Assembly: GCF_963921235.1 (NCBI RefSeq)
Contig: NC_086107.1
Coordinates: 110,052,001 to 110,116,000 of the forward strand
DNA: 64,000 nucleotides
Origin: Mobula hypostoma
Lineage: Eukaryota
Direction of reading: 5' to 3'
The notes under the pieces were generated by a model. That model saw only the letters and a program-made list of their open reading frames with translations, was not told the DNA's origin and searched no databases. This document shows positions 1 through 57,729 of this stretch, piece after piece. How positions within the stretch are numbered: position 1 is the stretch's first letter; the number at the start of each line of letters is the position of its first letter. Position numbers and translations under genes: made by a program.

Positions 1-1
1 C

Positions 2-199
2 TTTGAAGAGCGTGGTGTTGACCTGTCCAAACCGCTGGTGGGCACCTGTGGCTCAGGGGTCTCTGCCTGCCACGTCGCTCTTGCTGCCAGCCTGTGCGGG
101 CAAGACAACGTGATGATCTACGATGGCGCCTGGGTGGAGTGGTTCAGAAGAGCTAGTCCGAGTTACATCATCTCGGTGAAAAGTGAGAAAACTGGGTAA
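2..199 (+). CDS. MPST: 3-mercaptopyruvate sulfurtransferase (rhodanese family), C-terminal coding exon; 5' part lies outside the window
   Basis: Frame 2 reads [65 protein letters not shown]. It has the MPST-type active-site loop CGSGV(S/T) (TST has CRKGVT) and the rhodanese C-terminal signature YDGxWxEW. TAA at 197-199. Confidence 0.9.
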
Positions 200-293
200 T
201 CACCACTGAAGTCAATGGCTTGGGGTTGAAGCCACACACATCAAAGTTGCTGGTGAGCGCAGCAGGCCAGGCAGCAACTCTAGGAAGAGGTAC

Positions 294-329
294 AGTCAAC
301 GTTTCAGGCCGAGACCCTTCATCAGGACT
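294..329 (-). ncRNA. Minimal type-I hammerhead ribozyme motif (GUU triplet variant)
   Basis: Reverse complement AGTC-CTGATGA-AGGGTCTCGGCCT-GAAAC-GTT-GACT: CUGANGA and GAAA core boxes, stem I AGTC/GACT. Confidence 0.7.
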
Positions 330-1042
330 AAGTGAAGGAAGAGCTAGTAAGAGATTTGAAAGTGGGAGAGGGAGGGGGAGATCCGAAATGATAGGAGAAG
401 ACAGGAGGGGGAGGGATGGAGCCAAGAGCTGGACAGGTGACTGGCAAAAGGGATACAAGAGGATCATGGGACAAGAGGTCCGGGAAGAAAGACCAGGGGA
501 AGAACCCAGAGGATGGGCAAGGGGTATATTCAGGGACAGAGGGAGAAAAAGGAGAGTGAGAGAAAGAATGTGTGTATAAAAATAAATAACAGATGGGGTA
601 CGAGGGGGAGGTGGGGCATTAGCAGAAGTTAGAGAAGTCAATGTTCATGCCATCAGGTTGGAGGCTACCCAGACGGAGTATAAGGTGTTGTTCCTCCAAC
701 CTGAGTGTGGCTTCATCTTTACAGTAGAGGAGGCCGTGGATAGACATGTCAGAATGGGAATGGGATGTGGAATTAAAGTGTGTGGCCACTGGGAGATCCT
801 GCTTCCTCTGGCGGACAGAGCATAGGTGTTCAGCAAAGCGGTCTCCCAGTCTGCGTCGGGTCTCGCCAATATATAAAAGGCCACATCGGGAGCACCGGAC
901 GCAGTATATCACCCCAGCCGACTCATAGGTGAAATCACCTGTCCAGCTCTTGGCTCCATCCCTCCCCCTCCTGTCTTCTATCATTTTGGATCTCCCCCTC
1001 CCCCTCCAACTTTCAAATGTCTTACTCACTCTTCCTTCAGTT

Positions 1043-1078
1043 AGTCCTGACGAAGGGTCTCGGCCTGAAACGTCGACT
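1043..1078 (+). ncRNA. Minimal type-I hammerhead ribozyme motif
   Basis: AGTC-CTGACGA-AGGGTCTCGGCCT-GAAAC-GTC-GACT: core boxes, stems I and II, palindromic ACGT stem III; predicted cut 3' of C1074. Confidence 0.8.
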
Positions 1079-1275
1079 GTACCTCTTCCTAGAGATGCTG
1101 CCTGGCCTGCTGCATTCACCAGCAACTTTGATGTGTGTTGCTTGAATTTCCAGCATCTGCAGAATTCCTGTTGTTTGCGGCTTGGGGTTGACTTCTGAGA
1201 TCTGTGAAAAATTAGTGAGTCCCTTTTTTAAACCAGCGTCAGGGCACTCTATCTAATATTTAACCAGGAGGAAAT

Positions 1276-1639
1276 ATTAAAACGAAGTGTGTTTTAAATG
1301 TTCTGTGGAATATGTCTGGCACTCTTTATGGCAGTGTGTAGCAACAGTTACATCCTCTTCTTCCATGGTTTCCATGAGCTGGTGAGTTAACGGACTAAGT
1401 GTTGAACCTCTGTTTATCTTCTGATCCTTATGGTTCTTCCAGGAGTCAAAAAGTTGTGAGCAGTCTTTATTCTAACGATCGTACAAATAAACCTACAAAT
1501 ACTAAGCAAACTAAATAAAGAACTGAGGAAGGATGCTGAGAGGTGAATTCAAAGACAAAAGAATAAAGAAGCAAAGCAAAAGATGGTGCCTCTGAAAAAT
1601 CCATGACTTTTATAGATAAGAAACTTCTTAGATAATAAA
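1276..1639 (+). terminator. Candidate MPST polyadenylation signals
   Basis: ATTAAA at 1276-1281 followed by GT-rich sequence; AATAAA at 1486, 1514, 1562 and 1634. Which is used cannot be seen. Confidence 0.4.
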
Positions 1640-1962
1640 CTAGTTAATAGGCTACATAATTAAAATAATTGCATCACGTGGGTGATGTGCTAATACTTAG
1701 CCAATGAAAAATGAGAAAAGGTGATAAACCATTAGTTCAGCTGTTATACCACTTTCTGCCAGAGAGTGGGGATGAAACACTATGTATGGTGAAAAATACA
1801 TGAGTTTATTTAAAAAGTACGAATCTTATAATAAGTACGGTATTATCAAAAAAAAACAGTGATCTTCAAAAGTGGGTTGACAAATGTCAAGGTGACTCCT
1901 CAAGGTGCTGTGGTGGAACTGTTAATGAGAGGGGAATGTGCAGGCAAACATCATGCAGAATG

Positions 1963-2215
1963 CTGGCATGCTAGTGTAGTGGTTAGCGTGACGCTATTAC
2001 AGCTCGAGATGTGGGCGTCTGGAGCTCAATCCCGAGTCCTCTGTAAGGAGTTTGTACGTCCTCTCCAAAGGATGCTCACAGTCCAAAGGCCGAGTGGTTA
2101 GTAGGTTAATTGGTCATTGTAAATTGTCGCATGATTAGTCCAAGTTTAAACTGGTAGATTGACAGCGAGGCTCATTGAGCTGTGAGGATCTGTTCCATAC
2201 TGTGTGTCTAAATAA
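1963..2215 (+). mobile_element. HE1-like tRNA-derived elasmobranch SINE (degenerate)
   Basis: GTAGTGGTTAGC A-box head, then CTGTAAGGAGTTTGTACGT and GGTTAATTGGTCATTGTAAATTG. Related copies near 3400-3630(-), 6160-6410(-), 44180-44392(-), 50820-51085(-), 51813-52130(+), 55737-56010(+). Confidence 0.6.
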
Positions 2216-4129
2216 GTAAAAGTAAATACATTTAGAAAAGCAGCCTTACTACTGAAATCCCTGGAGTTAGACCCGAACCCTCAATTTCTGGTTCGTTTGA
2301 GATTGTTACCAATTAAACCAGCTGCACCAGAGGATGCATCACACGGGTGAATTATTCCAACAGGGCAGCCCAGGTTTCTGACTGAGAACACGAATCCTCG
2401 ATGAGTTTAGAATCCCAGAAGATAAAATCCAAGTCTAAATATTGTTGATCCTTTAAATGATCATCAGTCCTCCAAATGCATTTGTCAGAAGACCAAAGTT
2501 TTAACATGCAGGATTGTAGGCAGCTTCTTGGCCGCCATCAAAAGTGCAGCACAATTGGGCCAAGAGTTAAGTTTATTCAGCATTTTAGGTTACTCTGTCC
2601 TGTCACTAACCCAAGCCATGCCAAGCAAGTGCTAAAACACTTCCCTTCAGCAAGGACAAAATGTTAGATATGGGAAGGAAGGAATTGAATTGAAAATGAT
2701 GTGAAAAAAAACATCAGAAAGAAAATGTGTGATGAATTCAACATTTAAATTAAAAAATGCCTATTGTCCTAGTTAATTAATAATTAAAACAGCCTCTGAA
2801 CTAATTTACTAGAGGTTGAATATTAGCTGCCTTGGAGACACAGCAATATCATCCAACGTAAACAGCATTTTACAAACTTATAATCAGACTCAGATTTGAG
2901 AACTTTGATCGTATAAAAAGAATAAAGCTGTGAAATTGTTTGAAGATCTTGTACCTTGGCTTGTTGATATTGTGCTTCTCCTTCCAATAAAGGCAAGATA
3001 GGAAACATAGACACACAGGCCTATCATTTTACTGAGTGAATTTACTTCACGTTGAATGTTACAGAGGAGAACAGCACCTGAGTGTTTCATAATGTTCCCT
3101 TCACTGGATCTGCTTCACAGGACTGTTTGTTAATTAATTAATTTATTTTGGAGATACCGCACAGAATATGCCCTTCTGGCCCTTTGAGCTGTGCTGCCCT
3201 GGCATCCCCTCAACCCAGGTTTAACCCTGACCGATTTCTTCTTCCTTCTTGGGCCCTTAGCTCCCAGTGAGGCAAAGGCCATCAAAGACCTCCGGTTTCC
3301 ATTGTCCAAAGTCAAGGTTATGTTTGGAGGTTGTCATTTTTTTTCCGTAATCCATTATATCCACCGTACAGGGGATTGGCCTCCACAGCTTCACCAGAGC
3401 ACTGTAGGCCAGCCTTGCCTGTTTCCACCTCTCACGATGGGGACATAGGATTGGACTTTGAGAGGCACGGGACAATTTGCATTGACCAGTTAACCTACCC
3501 AGCACGTCTTTTCGACTGCGGGAGGAAACTGAAGCACCCAGGGGAAACCTATGCTTTTCGCGGAGACCCCTTACAGAGGACAGTCCAAGCTGTGATAGGT
3601 CCTCCAAGCTAGCCGCAACCCTACCATGGTGCCCATGTTGAGCATTCCTAAGTGATTGCATTTGCTTCTAATTCCAGGAATTGTCTTATGAGGGGAGAGA
3701 TCAAGTACACTGACTAAATTTCTGAAGGAATAGTAAATAACTGCATTGAAGCAGGCGACATTCTGAAAGCAACTGACAAGGTGGATGTGATGGGCATTTC
3801 TCCCCCAGACTTGAGAGTCCAGAGACAAGGGACAGGCATGGTCCCGGGATCAGGGTCAGAAAGTTTGGATTGAGAAGAGAAACAATTCACTTACTTAGAA
3901 TCGTGTCTTTGAAATCCTCCACTCTGAGAGGATGTGCTTGCTTAGTTGTTGAGAGAATTCAGAGTCGACTAATAGAACTTGAGCAGTCAAGGGAAGAAAG
4001 CAGGTTGCACGTCAGGCATGAATATAGGCTTGAAGGAGAACAGCATTGTTGATCACTGAAGAGTGGAACAGGCTTGAGGTGCTGTAGTGGCTAATTCAGC
4101 TTCTTTCTCTTTCATTCTTGTGTTATCTT

Positions 4130-4690
4130 TGAGCCACAGAGTCTTGGAACTCTACAGCACAGAAACAGGCCCTTCAGCCCATCTAGTCCATGCCAAACTA
4201 TTATTCTGCCTAGCCCCATTGACCTGCATTCGAACCATAGCCCCCATAACCCTCCCATCCAAATTTCTCTCAAACATTGCAATCAAACCCACATCCACCA
4301 CTTATGCTGGCAGCTGGTTCCACACTCTTACCCACATTCTGAGTGAGAAAGTTCCCTCTCGTGTCCCCATTAACCATTTCACCGTTCACCCTTAATCTAT
4401 GACCTCTAGTTTTAGTTTCACCTAACCTCAGTGGAAAAAGCCTACTTGCATTCACCCCTCATAATTTTGTATATCTCTACCAAATATCCCCTAATTCTCC
4501 TAACCAGCCAATCTTTCCCTTTAACTCAAGTCCCAGCAACATCCTTGCAAATTTTCTCTGCACTCTTTCAATCTTTTTGAAATTTTTCTTGTGACCAGAA
4601 CTGCACACAATACTCCAAATGAGGCCCCAGCAACGTATTATACAACTTCAACATAACATCCCATCTCCTATACTTAGAATTTGATTTATG
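4130..4690 (-). mobile_element. CR1 LINE 3' fragment, degraded
   Basis: Minus-strand remnants LFPLRLGETKTRGHRLRV...RGNFLTQ and VLCAVLVT(EYCVQFWS)-like sequence match the CR1 RT C-terminus seen in the intact copies. Confidence 0.7.
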
Positions 4691-6619
4691 CAAGTCAGTT
4701 TTCTGGGCAGGGGAGATTCTAAATGTCCATCCACTGGCAAATGTGTACCACAGCTGTGGCTGCCTCCAGCTTCATGAATGGACTGAGATCAGAAACCCTT
4801 CCAGCTTCAGTTCAACTTGTACAGTGTAGCAGATCGAATGGTATTTCAGGCCAGAGATGCAGAGTCAGAATCAGGGTTAATATCACCGGCATATGTCATG
4901 AAACTTGTTGTTTTGCAGCAGCAGTACGATGAAATACATACTAATAAAAATCTATTAAAAGTAGTACAAAAAGAGGTAAAAATGCTGAAGTAGTGTTCAT
5001 GGGTTCAATGTCCATTCAGAAATCTGATGGCAGAGGGGAAGAAGCTGTTCCTGAAAAGTTGAGTGTGTGTCTTCAGGCTCCTGTACCTCCTCTCTGATGG
5101 TAGCAATGAGAAGAGGGCTTGTCCTGGGAGATGGGGGTCCTTAATGATGGATGCTGCCCGTTCAAGGCATCGCTTTTTGAAGGTATCCTCGATGCTGGAT
5201 TACACTGAGCCCTCCCACTTGTTGAAGTGAAACCTGACTCCTTCGAAAAACTTGAGACACGAGTGAAATCTGAAGCAATGCACAAAAGGCTGGAGGAACT
5301 CAGCAGGTCAGGCAGCATCAACAGCGGGAAATGTACGGTTGATGTTTTGGTCCTGATGAAAGTTTTTGCCTGTTGCTCCTTCAGAGTGACTGCTAGACAT
5401 AGGCTGGTGTTGTCTCAGGCTGTTTGCCGATCCTTGTGGACTCTGCAGAGTGCCCCTGTTCTCAGTTTCTCACGCTGGTCTAGTTGGATATTAAAGAAAT
5501 GTATTGGAGAAGGACAGGAATTATTATTTTAAAATTACATAAAATAAGCCTTTCCAGAAGAACTCCCTCAGCTTAAGGCTTTAATGACAACTTTTGTCCT
5601 GTTTTATTGTGATATCACTCTGGAGGAACATTGTATCATTTCTTAATGCATGCATGCATTTCTAAATGACAATAAACGAGGACTGAGTGTCCTCATAATC
5701 TAATCTAAAATCTAAAAACAGAGTGGAACTTTGCTGCTAATCTCCACGAAACTACCAATAATTCCTCAACAAGACATCCTGAAATTTTCGCAGTGATCCC
5801 CTCCCTGAGGTCTTCAGAATTGGTAATTTGATATAACTTTCACTTGTTTATATGCTTCTTCTGTAAAAATATTAAAACGTTACTCCTTGGGTGATGTCTA
5901 ACTGATTTTCTAACTGCCTTGAGATGTAATTAGTGCTGAACAATCTCTATGGCTCTGTAAAGTTATATTTCTGTTCAGCTGTCCAGAATAATTAAATAAA
6001 TATTATATATGTTATAACTTTTAAAAAATATTAGTTTAAAGTATTTGAGTTTTTAGAAACATGGTTACACAGTGTAGAAAACAGGCCCGATAATCCGTCT
6101 GAACCACATTGACTAAGTTGCCTGAATGACCTAATCAATTTGCATTTATTTATTTATTTATTGAGATACAGTGCGGAATAGGCCCTCTCCCCAGCAACTC
6201 CCAATTTAACCCGAGCCTAATCACGGGATGATTTACAATGACCAATTGTAAATCTACTAACCGGTACGTTTGTGGACTGTGGGAGGAAATCGGAGGACCG
6301 GGAGAAAACCCACCCATTCCACCGGCTCCTTACAGATGATGTCGGAATTGAACTCTGAACTCTGCCCCCCCAAAAAAAACAGCGTCACGCTAACCGCAAC
6401 GTTACCATGGCACCCCCATACACCTCCTAACCTGGGCTCCATGAACCCCGCGGTTAATGGTAATGTTAAAAAGTTTGGGATCCCAGCTCTAAACCTTTCC
6501 TACCCAAATGTCTTTTAAAAGTTGTTAATTGTACCCACATTTTCCAGTTTCTCTGGTAAACCTTCCCATATACCCGCCACCCTCTATGACAGGAGTTCCT
6601 CCAACTTTTTTATGCCATG

Positions 6620-8541: not shown

Positions 8542-8744
8542 CACAACACATATCTAAGTTGCTGGTGAACACAACAGGCCAGGCAGCATCTCTAGGAAGG
8601 GGTACAGTCGACGTTTCAGGCCGAGACCCTTCGTCAGGACTAACTGAAAGAAGAGCTAGTAAGAGATTTGAAAGTGGGAGGGGGAGATCTGAAATGATAG
8701 GAGAAAACAGGAGGGGGAGGGATGGAGCCAAGAGCTTTGTGTTT
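8542..8744 (-). mobile_element. Penelope terminal-repeat fragment with hammerhead motif at 8606-8641 (-)
   Basis: Same repeat as 235-441. Flanked by GCATTGTTGGTCA (8529-8541) and GCATTATTGGTCA (8745-8757), a TSD with one mismatch. Confidence 0.8.
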
Positions 8745-11687: not shown

Positions 11688-13140
11688 CAAACACGAGGAA
11701 ATCTGCAGATGCTGGAACTTCAAGCAACACACATAAAAGTTGCTGGTGAACGCAGCAGGCCAGGCAGCATCTCTAGGAAGAGGTACAGTCGACGTTTCGG
11801 GCCGAGACCCTTCGTCAGGACTAACTGAAAGAAGAGATAGTAAGAGATTTGAAAGTGGGAGGGGGAGGGGGAGGGGGAGATCCAAAATGACAGGAGAAGA
11901 CAGGAGGGGGAGGGATGGAGCCAAGAGCTGGACAGGTGATTGGCAAAAGGGATACGAGAGGATCATGGGACAGGAAGCCTAGGGAGAAAGAAAAGGGGGA
12001 GGGGGAAGCCCAGGGGATGGGCAAGGGGTATAGTGAGAAATAGGAGAGAGAGAAAAAGAATGTGTGCATATAAATAAATAAATAACGGATGGGGTACAAG
12101 GGGAAGGCGGGGCATTAGCGGAAGTTTCAGAAGTCAATGTTCATGCCATCAGGTTGGAGGCTACCCAGATGGAATATAAAGTGTTGTTCCTCCAACCTGA
12201 GTGTGGCTTAATCTTTACAGTAGAGGAGGCCTTGGATAGACATATCAGAATGGGAATGGGATGTGGAACCAAAATGCGTGGCCACTGGGAGATTCTGCTT
12301 TATCTGGCGGACAGAGCGTAGGTGTTCGGCGAAACAATCTCCCAGTCTGTGTCGGGTCCCGCCAATATATAGAAGGCCACATCCGGAGCACTGGACGCAA
12401 TATATCACCCCAGCCGACTCATAGGTGAAGTGTCGCCTCTCCTGGAAGGACTGTCTGGGGCCCTGAATGGTAGTGGGGGAGGAAGTGTAAGGGCATGTGT
12501 AGCACTTGTTCCGCTTACAAGGATAAGTGCCAGGAGGGAGATTGGTGGGGAGGGATGGGGGGGGAGACGGATGGACAAGGGAGTCACGTAGGGAGCAATC
12601 CCTGCAGAAAGCAGAGTTGGGGGAGGGAAAGATGTGCTTAGTGGTGGGATCCCGTTGGAGGTGGTGGAAGTTACAGAGAATTATATGTTGGACCCAGAGG
12701 CCGGTGGGGTGGTGGGTAAGGACAAGGGGAACCCTATTCCTAGTGGGGTGGCGGGAGGATGGAGTGAGAGCAGATATGCGTGAAATGGGGGAGATGTGTT
12801 TGAGAGCAGAGTTGATGGTGGAGGAAGGGAAGCCCCTTTCTTTAAAAAAAGGAGGACATCTCCTTCATCCTGGAATGAAAAGCCTCATCCTGAGAGCAGA
12901 TGCGGCGGAGACGGAGGAATTGCGAGAAGGGGATGGCATTTTTGCAAGAGACAGGGTGAGAAGAAGAATAGTCCAGATAGTTTGAGAGTCAGTGGGCTTA
13001 TAGTAGATATCAGTAGAAATGGACCAGGTAAACTTGAGGGCAGGGTGAAAGTTGGAGGGGGAGGAAGTTTGGAGGAAGTGGGAGGAGCCAAAGGAGAAAT
13101 TATTAAGAGTAAGAAACAGCTCCATGTGTACTTCTGCCAT
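11688..13140 (-). mobile_element. Penelope-like element, 5'-truncated and internally deleted (RT remnants, GIY-YIG, terminal repeat with hammerhead at 11787-11822)
   Basis: Minus-strand remnants ELFLTLNNFSF, LKFTWSIS, TDIYYKPTDS, LRLRRICSQD and IYCVQCSGCGLLYIG; ends in the terminal repeat and ...TTCCTCGTGTTTG tail. Confidence 0.85.
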
Positions 13141-14996: not shown

Positions 14997-15141
14997 CACG
15001 TATAAGATAGCAAGTAAGCATATGTCACACAAAATATACATAATATATAGTCCAATTACCTAAGTATCACATCCTGTAAATTGATGGTACGTGGGTGTTA
15101 TTGGCTGTTCTCAGCAGTCTGCAGGCAATGACTGCATGCAA

Positions 15142-15818
15142 GCAACATACATCAAAGTTGCTGGTGAACGCAGCAGGCCAAGCAGCATCTATAGGAAGAG
15201 GTGCAGTCGACGTTTCAGGCCGAGAATTAATTCCACGTCCCATTCCCATTCTGACATGTCTATCCACGGCCTCCTCTACTGTAAAGATGAAGCCACACTC
15301 AGGTTGGAGGAACAACACCTTATATTCCGTCTGGGTAGCCTCCATCCTGATGGCATGAACATCGACTTCTCTAACTTCTGCTAAGGCCCCACCTCCCCCT
15401 CGTACCCCATCTGTTACTCATTTTTATGCACACATTCTTTCTCTCACTCTCCTTTTTCTCCCTCTGTCCCTCTGAATATACCTCTTGCCCATCCTCTGGG
15501 TCACCCCCCCCCGTCTTTCTTCCCGGACCTCCTGTCCCATGATCCTCTCGTATCCCCTTTTGCCTATCACCTGTCCAGCTCTCGGCTCTATCCCTCCCCC
15601 TCCTGTCTTCTCCTATCATTTTGCATCTCCCCCTCCCCCTCCAGCTTTCAAATCCCTTACTCACTCTTCCTTCAGTTAGTCCTGACGAAGGGTCTCGGCC
15701 TGAAACGTCGACTGCACCTCTTCCTATAGATGCTGCTTGGCCTGCTGCGTTCACCAGCAACTTTGATGTGTGTTGCTTGAATTTCCAGCATCTGCAGAAT
15801 TCCTGTTGTTTGCGTTAA
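15142..15818 (+). mobile_element. Penelope-like fragment with inverted 5' terminal-repeat piece, in RPS19BP1 intron 1
   Basis: 15142-15225 is an inverted partial repeat. 15226-15815 carries the GIY-YIG C-terminus (NSTSHSHSDMSIHGLL...DFSNFC), terminal repeat and tail. 15-bp TSD AATGACTGCATGCAA at 15127-15141 and 15819-15833. Confidence 0.9.
15678..15713 (+). ncRNA. Minimal type-I hammerhead ribozyme motif
   Basis: AGTC-CTGACGA-AGGGTCTCGGCCT-GAAAC-GTC-GACT; predicted cut 3' of C15709. Confidence 0.8.
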
Positions 15819-41460: not shown

Positions 41461-41571
41461 AGATGTGTAACCATTTGTGGTGAAGGAAGAAAAGTAAAAG
41501 CAGGAAGGAAACAAGGACAGGCGAAACGCCAGATTCTGCAGATGCTGGAAATCCAGAGTAACACATGCAAA

Positions 41572-41844
41572 CAACAGGAATTCTGCAGATGCTGGAAATT
41601 CAAGCAACATACATCAAAGTTGCTGGTGAATGCAGCAGGCCAAGCAGCATCTATAGGAAGAGGCACAGTCGACGTTTCAGGCCGAGACCCTTTGTCAGGA
41701 CTAACTGAAGGAAGAGTGTCGACGTTTCAGGCCGAGACCCTTCGTCAGTTAGTCCTGACGAAGGGTCTCGGCCTGAAACGTCGACTGCGCCTCTTCCTAT
41801 AGATGCTGCTTGGCCTGCTGCGTTCACCAGCAACTTTGATGTAT
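41572..41844. mobile_element. Palindromic Penelope terminal-repeat insertion carrying three hammerhead motifs
   Basis: Motifs at 41667-41702 (-, core mutated to CTGACAA), 41718-41748 (-) and 41751-41786 (+). 14-bp TSD GTAACACATGCAAA at 41558-41571 and 41845-41858. Nested in an older related repeat. Confidence 0.85.
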
Positions 41845-42792
41845 GTAACACATGCAAAATACTGGTACTCAGCAGGTCAGGCAGCTTCAGTGGAGAGGGA
41901 TAAAGAGTCAAGGTTTCAGGCTGAGACCCTTCATGAGTCCTGTGTGTGTGTGTGTGTTTGCAACCTGGAGTCCATGGACCCTTCGCTTAATGGTGAGGGT
42001 CCACAGCATTAAAAAGATTGGGAACCTCTGATAGGGTGTGATTAAGAATGGTAAAGGGATGCTTGTGTGCATCTCAACACTGTACTTGTGTTGGCCAGAA
42101 TGCCTACTTTGAATTCCCTATAGATAATTCTTCGCTGTGTGTGTGTGTGTGTGTAAATAAGGCATCATGCTTCCCTCAACTCCTCCACTGGTTTCTTGGC
42201 CAGCTTCCACCATGCATTCTTGTGAACTTTATCTGATCTAAAATTCTTGAGATACCTGTCTGACAACTCCCACCAAAACCTGTTGGTCCATTGCTCAGTG
42301 ACACATTATCTTGTCATCCAACATAACCTTGAATTTAAGATTCCAAGAATTTGTTGGTTTGCGATGTGCCGCGTTGTATGAGGTGGGTGATCACAGTCTT
42401 TCCATGCTTCAGCGCACATTTATTATCAAAGAATGTGTAAATTATAAAGCCTGAAATTTGCTTTCTCACAGGTAGCCGCAAAGCAAGAAACCTGAAAGAG
42501 CCCATTTAATAAAAAATGAAAGACCAACACCCAACACGCAGAGAAAGGGGGAAAAAAAACACAAATCATGCAAACAACTGAAGCCAGCAACAACATTCTG
42601 AAGCAAGTTAAGTCCTCAGGTCCGAACCACAGAGTGGGCCCTAAGCCTCGCTTATCAGTTCATCATATCAGCAGGCATGGAGCACAGCAGCCGGGGCAGT
42701 CTTCATAGCCTCAACACCACGGAGACGAGTGACTCTTGTGGAAAGCAAGTGAAATCAGCTCTCGCCTCAGATCCCAACAACCTGTCTTATCT

Positions 42793-43303
42793 ATTGGAGG
42801 AACAACACCTTATATTCCGTCTGGGTAGCCTCCAACCTGATGGCATGAACATTGACTTCTCAAACTTCTGCTAATGTCCCACCTCCCCCTCGTACCCCAT
42901 CCGTTATTTATTCATATACACACATTCTTTTTCATTCTCTCCTTTTTCTCCCTCTGTCCCTCTGACTATACCCCTTGCCCATCCTCTGGGTTCCCCCCCT
43001 CCCCCTTTTCCTTCTCCCTGGGCCTCCTGTCCCATGATCCTCTCATATCCCTTTTGCCAATCACCTGTCCAGCTCTTGGCTCCATCCCTCCCCCTCCTGT
43101 CTTCTATCATTTTGGATCTCCTGCTCCCCCTCCCACTTTCAAATCTCTTACTATCTCTTCTTTCAGTTAGTCCTGACGAAGGGTCTCGGCCCGAAACGTC
43201 GACTGTACCTCTTCCTAGAGATGCTGCCTGGCCTGCTGCGTTCACCAGCAACTTTTATGTGTGTTGCTTGAAATTCCAGCATCTGCAGGTTTCCTCGTGT
43301 TTG
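42793..43303 (+). mobile_element. Penelope-like 3' fragment with hammerhead at 43169-43204 (+)
   Basis: LEEQHLIFRLGSLQPDGMNIDFSNFC, terminal repeat and tail; 10-bp TSD TGTCTTATCT at 42783-42792 and 43304-43313. Confidence 0.85.
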
Positions 43304-56775: not shown

Positions 56776-57285
56776 GGCCTCCTCTACTGTAAAGATGAAG
56801 CCACACTCAGGTTGGAGGAACAACACCTTATATTCCGTCTGGGTAGCCTCCAACCTGATAGCATGAACATTGACTTCCCAAACTTCCGCTAATGCCCCAC
56901 CTCCCCCCGTACACCATCCATTATTTATTTATATACACACATTCTTTTTCTTTCTCTCCTTTTTCTCCCTCTATCCCTCTCACTATACCCCTTGCCCATC
57001 CTCTGGGCTTCACCCCTCCCCCTTTCTTTCTCCCTGGATCTCCTGTCCCATGATCCTCTCATATCCCTTTTGACAATCAACTGTCCAGCTCTTGGCTCCA
57101 TCCCTCCCCCTCCTGTCTTCTCCTATCATTTTGGATCTCCCTCTCCCCCTCCAACTTTCAAATCCCTTACTCACTCTTCCTTCAGTTAGTCCTGATGAAG
57201 GGTCTCAGCCTGAAACGTCGACTGCACCTCTTCCTAGAGATGTTGCCTGGCCTGCTGCATTCACCAGCAACTTTTATGTGTGTTA
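56776..57285 (+). mobile_element. Penelope-like 3' fragment with hammerhead at 57188-57223 (+)
   Basis: GLLYCKDEATLRLEEQHL remnant plus terminal repeat; AGTC-CTGATGA-AGGGTCTCAGCCT-GAAAC-GTC-GACT. Confidence 0.8.
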
Positions 57286-57729
57286 CTAGAAACTACAAGC
57301 TAACAGCTTCAAGGAGCGGCCCCTCAGGTGGCATCCAGCAGTAAGGACCCCCATCACTCAGGACCTGCCCTTTTCTCACTGTTACCATCAACAAGGATGT
57401 ACAGAAGGCTGAAGGCACACACTCAGCGCTTCAGGAACAGCTTCTTCCCCTCTGCCATCTGATTTCGAAATGGACATTGAACCCATGAACACAGCCTCAC
57501 TTTTTCATTACAGTATTTCTGTTTTTGGACTACTATTTTTAAATTAACCATTTAATATACATATATATATTTACTGTAATCCATTTTTCCCTATATTTAT
57601 CATGTATTGCATTGTACTGCTGCCACAAAGTTAACAAATTTCACAACTCGTGCCAGTGATATTAAACCTGTTTCTGATATTTTGAAGTTAGTAATTGTCC
57701 CCTTGTAAGAACATGTGTTTCATATCATT

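Follow-up and report, generated by a model that had tools for sequence, protein, structure and literature searches.

A Penelope-like element with a predicted long hairpin in the MPST 3' UTR of Mobula hypostoma is probably an ordinary insertion rather than a dedicated switch

The stretch of DNA analyzed in this study (the window) comprises 64,000 nucleotides of the Mobula hypostoma assembly GCF_963921235.1 (contig NC_086107.1, positions 110,052,001 to 110,116,000 of the forward strand) and its first letters fall within the last coding exon of a rhodanese-family gene on the plus strand. The 3' part of that exon occupies positions 1-199, as delimited by an open frame (2-199, plus strand) that ends with the TAA stop codon at 197-199, by PDB matches and by the starts of transcript-like contigs, which place the beginning of the exon ~104 nt upstream of the window. 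When the frame was extended to the exon start, the top PDB matches for the resulting 100-residue product were to human MPST (4jgt and 3olh, E ~7e-37), with the rhodanese/TST entries ranking behind them (E ~6e-31), and the product was found to have CGSGVSA at the active-site position. Based on this best match and the active-site sequence the gene was assigned as MPST, the same identity that had been proposed in an earlier reading of the window made from the letters alone (referred to below as the sequence-only reading). The Pfam Rhodanese model scored the exon at 20.5 bits (E 6.5e-4), which is below its curated cutoff of 22.2.

Of 22 public runs listed, none of them on record as RNA, Logan contigs of four were aligned to L012, a sequence spanning window positions -999 to 8000. 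Two of the runs, X1 and X2, derive from organism A, and the others from organisms B (X5) and G (X19). Since the X1 and X2 contigs differ from the window by only 0-2 letters per contig downstream of the insert described below, organism A was taken to be the species of the window itself. Over the pieces listed, divergence from A was ~2.7% for B (115 of 4,258 letters) and ~4.6% for G (128 of 2,780 letters), values to which some pieces that are perhaps paralogous repeats may contribute. The runs are labelled 'RNA?', which is a guess, and their RNA nature rests on contigs that begin at a splice acceptor: each of the four runs yields a contig that starts at L012 896, a predicted acceptor consisting of a polypyrimidine tract and AG, and in X2, X5 and X19 this contig has 707, 585 and 24 further letters, respectively, that lie off the stretch. 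Based on these off-stretch letters, the contigs appear to be spliced transcripts.

The 3' UTR of MPST is interrupted by an insert of 949 bp (230-1178) that starts 30 nt 3' of the stop codon. The insert lies between two identical copies (100% identity) of a 13-bp target-site duplication, GGCTTGGGGTTGA, which were located by repeat search: the left copy, at 217-229, begins 17 bases past the stop and is seen also at the empty site in organism G, and the right copy, at 1179-1191, is seen also in the contigs. A native ATTAAA is located downstream of the insert at 1276-1281. The same arrangement, a 949-bp insert with a 13-bp duplication between the stop codon and the native poly(A) signals, had been claimed in the sequence-only reading, and its coordinates hold. 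In the contig from organism G, L012 896-1215 is joined straight to 2178-2717, that is, window position 215 to 1178, so that this one contig joins the exon to window 1717; the skipped length of 962 nt equals the insert plus one copy of the duplication. Splicing was considered as the cause of the gap and rejected. The ambiguity of the duplication allows no GT..AG pair, as the only GT (225-226) would pair with an intron end of GG, not AG, and the gap is therefore an empty site. Organism G carries a precise empty site, which is independent proof of the insertion, and both this site and the target-site duplication belong to the features by which membership of the Penelope-like elements (PLEs) was judged. 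At 216 the G contig reads C and the window T, and window position 1178 is also C; the duplication was thus probably 14 bp originally, beginning at 216, and was shortened by a later C-to-T change at a CpG. A further gap of 1,361 nt in the G contig (window 2924-4284) was considered as a second transposon insertion and rejected, as unique DNA makes up most of it, apart from one old repeat of ~230 nt.

The insert is present in the other two organisms. At the left junction the exon contig enters the left arm of the insert by 31-34 nt, and at the right junction another contig starts 28-29 nt inside the right arm and runs out of it, a length below the 31-nt rule for bridging (X1, X2 and X5 in each case). 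The contigs that cross either junction break where the sequence becomes common to the rest of the family. Organisms A and B carry the insert, and they carry it within transcribed sequence. As judged from these sequences, the insertion would date from after the split of G from the A+B lineage and before the split of A and B.

Several features of its sequence identify the insert as a 5'-truncated PLE, the main copy of which lies on the minus strand, antisense to MPST. In mRNA direction, it starts with the 3'-terminal repeat arm of the main copy, which is without a 'tail' (230-441, minus strand, defined by arm alignment and family copies). This is followed by the PLE 3' untranslated part, from the stop codon to the terminal arm, which would form part of a hairpin loop in the mRNA (442-618, minus strand), and by what is left of the C-terminal part of the PLE ORF, the GIY-YIG endonuclease (619-933, minus strand, based on Pfam and on collinearity with longer family ORFs). 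The remainder consists of an inverted 5' copy of the terminal arm, sense on the mRNA strand (934-1142, plus strand, from the arm alignment), and a 36-nt tail (1143-1178, plus strand), which is found on the inverted arm only, the arm alignment ending at 1142. The Pfam GIY-YIG model (PF01541) matched the minus-strand ORF 1125..619 with an E of 2.6e-5 and 24.8 bits, relative to a cutoff of 22.6. When compared to other genomic copies, homology to the family ORF begins near 933/934, which was taken as the 5' truncation point, and 934-1142 is an inverted copy of the 3' end of the element itself, not ORF. As a result of the truncation, the insert copy has no reverse transcriptase. Longer family ORFs (417 and 691 aa) contain a YIDD box and a Cys-rich CKRNKCYTC stretch before the endonuclease; Pfam RVT_1 was unmatched on these longer ORFs even at E 10, and the copy from locus L004 is truncated, at 417 aa. 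The nearest ESM-Atlas clusters (score 0.98, which is a lead only) consist of animal proteins, of whose members 52-92% have RVT_1 and 26-52% have GIY-YIG.

A gapped alignment of 934-1142 against the reverse complement of 230-441 showed the two arms to be 93.75% alike (195 matches, 13 mismatches and one 3-nt indel), and in ungapped comparisons 226-411 and 961-1146 were 89% complementary and 396-440 and 935-979 were 100% complementary. The inverted repeat is thus slightly longer than the ~205 bp (235-441 versus 934-1137) described in the sequence-only reading, which is otherwise borne out on this point. The divergence of the arms, 6.25%, is somewhat greater than the ~4.6% between A and G, an excess that is within sampling noise for 13 differences and that could result from CpG decay, two different templates or reverse transcriptase errors. 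With regard to the tail, the 3' ends of family copies are bimodal: 17 of 40 arm matches include the tail and the other 23 stop 30-40 nt short of its end.

This architecture correlates well with descriptions of PLEs. The PLE layout given in PMC8557442 includes an 'inverted 5'-truncated copy' and a 30- to 40-bp extension, the tail, which is described also in PMC11167929, and across these two papers and PMC4209133 the points of likeness to the MPST insert comprise a C-terminal GIY-YIG domain, 5' truncation and duplication of the target site, together with an inverted 5'-truncated copy by which terminal inverted repeats are formed, a tail of 30-40 bp at one of the ends and a terminal repeat that carries a minimal hammerhead. 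The MPST copy differs in having lost the reverse transcriptase. The Penelope identity that the sequence-only reading had given to the insert therefore agrees with its GIY-YIG domain, inverted arms, tail and target-site duplication. According to PMC11167929, there are two adjacent internal start sites for reverse transcription in PLEs, and both strands of the target are cleaved and extended. At the MPST locus a single staggered cut presumably supplied a primer on each of its strands, and the 3' region of the PLE RNA was reverse transcribed from both, once from either of the two known start sites, giving rise to the two head-to-head arms. Priming from the two strands of a single staggered cut would also explain the 13-14-bp duplication, which it would leave behind.

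The two junctions imply that the mature MPST mRNA would carry the whole element. The junction-crossing contigs run at least 485 nt past the insert in A and B, and downstream contigs extend to L012 7016 (X1), 6637 (X2), 6636 (X5) and 6478 (X19). Inside the element (L012 1261-2149) the contig cover stems from all family copies, and one 147-nt contig of X2 (L012 1385-1531, with 4 other letters) could represent either the MPST copy or a paralogue. Among the substitutions tallied, ordinary transitions run both ways (in X1, for example, A>G 24, T>C 31, G>A 27 and C>T 18), and the tallies are unusable for editing. Near the native 3' end, contigs of two studies, X1 and X5, end at window 1664 and 1663, respectively, ~25 nt past an AATAAA at 1634-1639; these ends hint weakly at a proximal poly(A) site around 1663/1664 (candidate feature 1634-1664, plus strand). 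A contig of X2 passes through 1663/1664, and the X19 contig ends at L012 2717.

An AATAAA is also present inside the element on the mRNA strand (581-586, by motif scan), just where the sequence-only reading had noted one, and it is followed by G-rich sequence. A share of MPST transcripts might be polyadenylated at this signal, resulting in a shorter UTR without the native downstream sequence. Word depth just past the insert, compared to that of the exon contig, was 259/334 in X1, 94/121 in X2 and 79/83 in X5, a 5-22% reduction that points weakly in the direction of such an early 3' end. Conversely, the contigs resume at the right junction at similar depth and go on for kilobases, the rows listed include no loose poly(A) end around L012 1600-1630, and the signal is situated inside the predicted hairpin loop with a strong duplex on both sides. 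Since the parts of a gene cannot be ranked by contig depth, these values are taken as a weak indication that the insert is read through in most transcripts. Early polyadenylation within the element is accordingly an explanation that we judge unlikely.

The predicted fold of positions 200-1200 has the arms paired almost end to end over ~210 bp, with an MFE of -562.8 kcal/mol. In view of the junction-crossing contigs that continue downstream, the MPST mRNA most likely contains this ~210-bp hairpin, and both inverted copies reside within one transcribed 3' UTR (X1, X2 and X5 contigs), as in the case of inverted Alus (IRAlus). The sequence-only reading had proposed a long hairpin that sequesters a ribozyme; consistent with this, the contigs cross both junctions and the sense hammerhead motif described below falls fully inside the predicted duplex, opposite its own antisense copy. 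In vivo, the hairpin would be expected to form and to be a generic substrate for ADAR, Staufen and similar proteins, based on what is described for inverted Alus as substrates of dsRNA-binding proteins (PMC4378195, PMC11263572 and PMC3458544). The MPST insert resembles human 3' UTR IRAlus in having two inverted transposon copies in one 3' UTR and a predicted long intramolecular dsRNA, but it differs in that both of its arms come from a single insertion event and in that it belongs to an unrelated class of element.

A hairpin of this length could measurably alter MPST expression in A and B with no part played by the hammerhead, by routes such as A-to-I editing, Staufen or paraspeckle binding, nuclear retention or reduced translation. 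Supporting this possibility are the predicted ~210-bp fold, the presence of both insert junctions in the transcript-like contigs and reports of mRNAs with inverted Alus in their 3' UTRs being retained in the nucleus or translated differently (PMC4378195 and PMC3458544). Against it, the contig word depth past the insert is near that of the exon, which is a weak point given the nature of the measure, the outcomes of inverted Alus as covered in PMC3458544 differ between reports, and the genome has a great many hairpins of this type. On balance, a measurable effect of the hairpin on MPST expression appears rather unlikely.

The right arm contains a minimal (PLE-type) hammerhead on the mRNA strand (1042-1079, plus strand), which was defined by core scan and fold and which corresponds to the sense hammerhead motif that had been placed near 1043-1078 from the letters alone. 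Its core consists of CUGACGA (1047-1053), GAAA (1067-1070) and GUC (1072-1074), with a predicted cleavage position after C1074. Helix I is ~5 bp (1042-1046 paired to 1075-1079), and helix II is 4 bp (GGGU/GCCU) with the loop CUCG and is preceded by an extra A. Helix III is absent: GAAAC is followed directly by GUC (1067-1074), leaving no room for an intramolecular helix, and the ACGU in its place is palindromic. A second motif is located on the minus strand in the left arm (~294-330, core 299-325), with GUU as its triplet.

The motif shares with the minimal PLE hammerheads of PMC4209133 the CUGANGA and GAAA boxes, the extra nucleotide between A9 and G10.1, a helix I of ~5 bp, the lack of helix III, a palindromic ACGU at 15.1-16.1 and the occurrence of two motifs on opposite strands, reported there to lie 100-700 bp apart. 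There are differences in that the Schistosoma minimal hammerheads described in that paper have a helix II of 7-8 bp, versus 4 bp in the MPST copy, and in that its descriptor has a G-C pair at 10.1-11.1. In the MPST copy the partner of G10.1 is U, not C; the pair is G-U in seven of the nine copies in the window and G-C in two. The motif departs from a canonical hammerhead as represented by the Rfam models and by three helices, and has instead the minimal PLE core and a NUH triplet. No Rfam hammerhead model matched over 1-3000 (E up to 1) or over 1020-1100 (E up to 10), and the sole Rfam hit, PrrB/RsmZ with an E of 0.72, was dismissed as a chance match. The MFE structure of the 51-nt motif shows helix I and the 4-bp helix II, but with a z of -0.33 it is no better than those of shuffled sequences.

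The presence of this motif raises the question of a regulatory switch, in which unwinding or editing of the hairpin would free the sense hammerhead and a cut after C1074 would remove the poly(A) tail, placing an H2S/persulfide enzyme under conditional control. The core nucleotides, the GUC triplet and helices I and II are all intact on the mRNA strand, and a precedent for a hammerhead in a 3' UTR exists in the rodent Clec2 genes, in which Martick et al. in 2008 reportedly described a discontinuous hammerhead. The Clec2 ribozyme is reported to be active and to have all three helices as well as tertiary contacts. The MPST motif is like it in being a hammerhead motif in the 3' UTR of a protein-coding mRNA, but unlike it in being minimal, without helix III, transposon-borne and situated in a predicted duplex.

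A number of observations weigh against such a switch. For single minimal PLE hammerheads, Cervera & de la Pena 2014 (PMC4209133) report no detectable self-cleavage in vitro, and for dimeric and trimeric ones they report low activity, mostly at non-physiological Mg2+. The MPST motif is of this minimal type without helix III, it is the only sense-strand copy within 8 kb, and it has the G10.1-U pair in place of G-C. PMC11167929 describes RNA-seq from Anolis in which no reads end at the PLE hammerhead site. In the opposite direction, the same paper reports cleavage by PLE hammerheads at 3-25 mM Mg2+, which speaks against inertness; their in vivo role is still an open matter in the accounts of both papers. 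The sense minimal hammerhead is presumably catalytically inert in the context of the MPST UTR because it is present as a single copy, has no helix III, is buried in a duplex and has no counterpart among the RNA ends in Anolis. Given the minimal type, the single sense copy and the inactivity reported in PMC4209133, the claim in the sequence-only reading of a ribozyme able to cut off the poly(A) tail finds no support.

The genome as a whole provides a further line of evidence. First-look searches returned 7,987 family candidates by DNA and 242,777 by protein, with family copies ~94% identical to query 1-704 and with open frames that reach 1,054 aa among 100 scored protein candidates. A strict 30-nt hammerhead motif was found 59,517 times (29,737 + 29,780) in the 3.48-Gb assembly, versus 0 times for the reversed control, and the loose pattern CTGANGAN{8,30}GAAACGT matched nine times in the 64-kb window, where 0.02 matches were expected. 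Among the first 100 motif places listed there were 10 (-,+) pairs within 1.3 kb and no (+,-) pairs, and an inverted partner adjoins the 5' end in four of the nine other family loci examined. The window itself contains ~8 more family insertions, none of them between 1200 and 8500. Hairpin-forming, hammerhead-bearing insertions are the norm for the family and no peculiarity of the MPST locus. In light of the abundance of the family and its usual layout of inverted arms, nothing sets the MPST copy apart. The 59,517 occurrences of the motif, the usual layout and the lack of a match in Rfam all count against a transposon-made switch on MPST, as the sequence-only reading would have it, and we consider conditional cleavage of the MPST mRNA by its own hammerhead exceedingly improbable.

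Taken together, the best explanation is that the locus probably contains an ordinary PLE insertion in the MPST 3' UTR, and not a dedicated switch. On this view a 5'-truncated PLE inserted in a lineage-specific manner, its main copy, antisense to MPST, comprising the GIY-YIG remnant, the 3' UTR and the terminal arm with its minimal hammerhead, and an inverted copy of the 3' end of the element, including the 36-nt tail, being joined to it head-to-head. The insert would be transcribed within the MPST mRNA and would not be a dedicated regulator, and any effect on MPST would be generic and mild. A more elaborate possibility is that MPST output differs between A/B and G via a heavily A-to-I edited or protein-bound hairpin, with the unmasked hammerhead cleaving the UTR in trans: once the duplex had been opened or edited, the hammerhead would pair through its ACGU palindrome with another PLE RNA. 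This we regard as highly unlikely, although if true it would turn the locus into a natural comparison, with and without the insert, for ribozymes that a transposon brings into a host mRNA.

If the reading of an ordinary insertion is right, the MPST copy is of little import in itself, as one of tens of thousands of PLE insertions in a transposon-rich genome that happens to lie in a tolerant 3' UTR. The kinds of feature involved, namely a PLE insertion, an inverted-repeat transposon in a 3' UTR and a hammerhead in a 3' UTR, are already known. The locus has a modest value in that close relatives with the insert (A and B) and without it (G) are available for the same MPST 3' UTR, a contrast that could be used to probe the in vivo effect of a hairpin formed in a single event and of a minimal hammerhead borne by an mRNA.

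A genome-wide, protein-level search of Mobula hypostoma returned 242,777 first-look candidates for the Penelope-like element (PLE) family represented by the insert in the MPST 3' UTR, and the hammerhead motif of this family had 59,517 exact matches across the genome. Many of the 100 PLE protein matches that were scored carried stop-free open frames of 800-1,054 amino acids at ~95% identity, which suggests that the family is or has recently been active. Besides the MPST-UTR copy, blastn identified ~8 additional PLE-family insertions in the 64-kb window, with matches at 8544-8736, 11688-12429, 15136-15813, 41567-41937, 42794-43303 and 56776-57291. Two hammerhead motifs, at 41722-41748 on the minus strand and 41755-41781 on the plus strand, lie head-to-head with a spacing of only 7 nt, so close together that they take the inverted-pair layout to an extreme. 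Comparable pairs, spaced by 38-90 nt, were recurrent among the genome-wide motif matches listed.

The two arms of the MPST-UTR insert (230-441 and 934-1142) are separated by 13 mismatches and one 3-nt indel, a difference of 6.25% that exceeds the ~4.6% between the window's species (organism A) and organism G, even though the insertion postdates the split of A and G. The excess might stem from CpG decay, from two distinct RNAs having served as templates or from reverse transcriptase errors. One contig from organism A (run X2; 147 nt, depth 31) lay inside the insert at window 385-531 (1385-1531 in L012, the stretch covering window -999 to 8000) with only four differences, closer to the insert than are its paralogues, which typically differ by ~6%. 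It could be a transcript of the MPST-UTR copy with a few changes.

Among the contigs of runs X1 and X2 (organism A), X5 (organism B) and X19 (organism G), many broke at window 5281-5319 (L012 6281-6319), or were joined there to sites immediately 3' of each arm's hammerhead (joints at L012 2080/6319 and 6319/1292). A blastn search with the PLE found no copies of it at 5281-5319, which is probably the boundary of another repeat of high copy number, one often located beside the ends of PLEs.

An X19 contig (depth 7) linked L012 3923 to 5285, omitting 1,361 nt (window 2924-4284; L012 3924-5284) that are present in organisms A and B and consist largely of unique DNA with a single old repeat of ~230 nt (window about 3235-3467). 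GT..AG was absent at the stated ends of this gap. The gap may have arisen by deletion in organism G, or it may stem from an atypical joint or from an artefact of assembly. Runs X1 and X2, both from organism A, differed from the assembly within the MPST coding exon at window 41 (L012 1041; G>A) and window 127 (L012 1127; C>T), presumably as polymorphisms.
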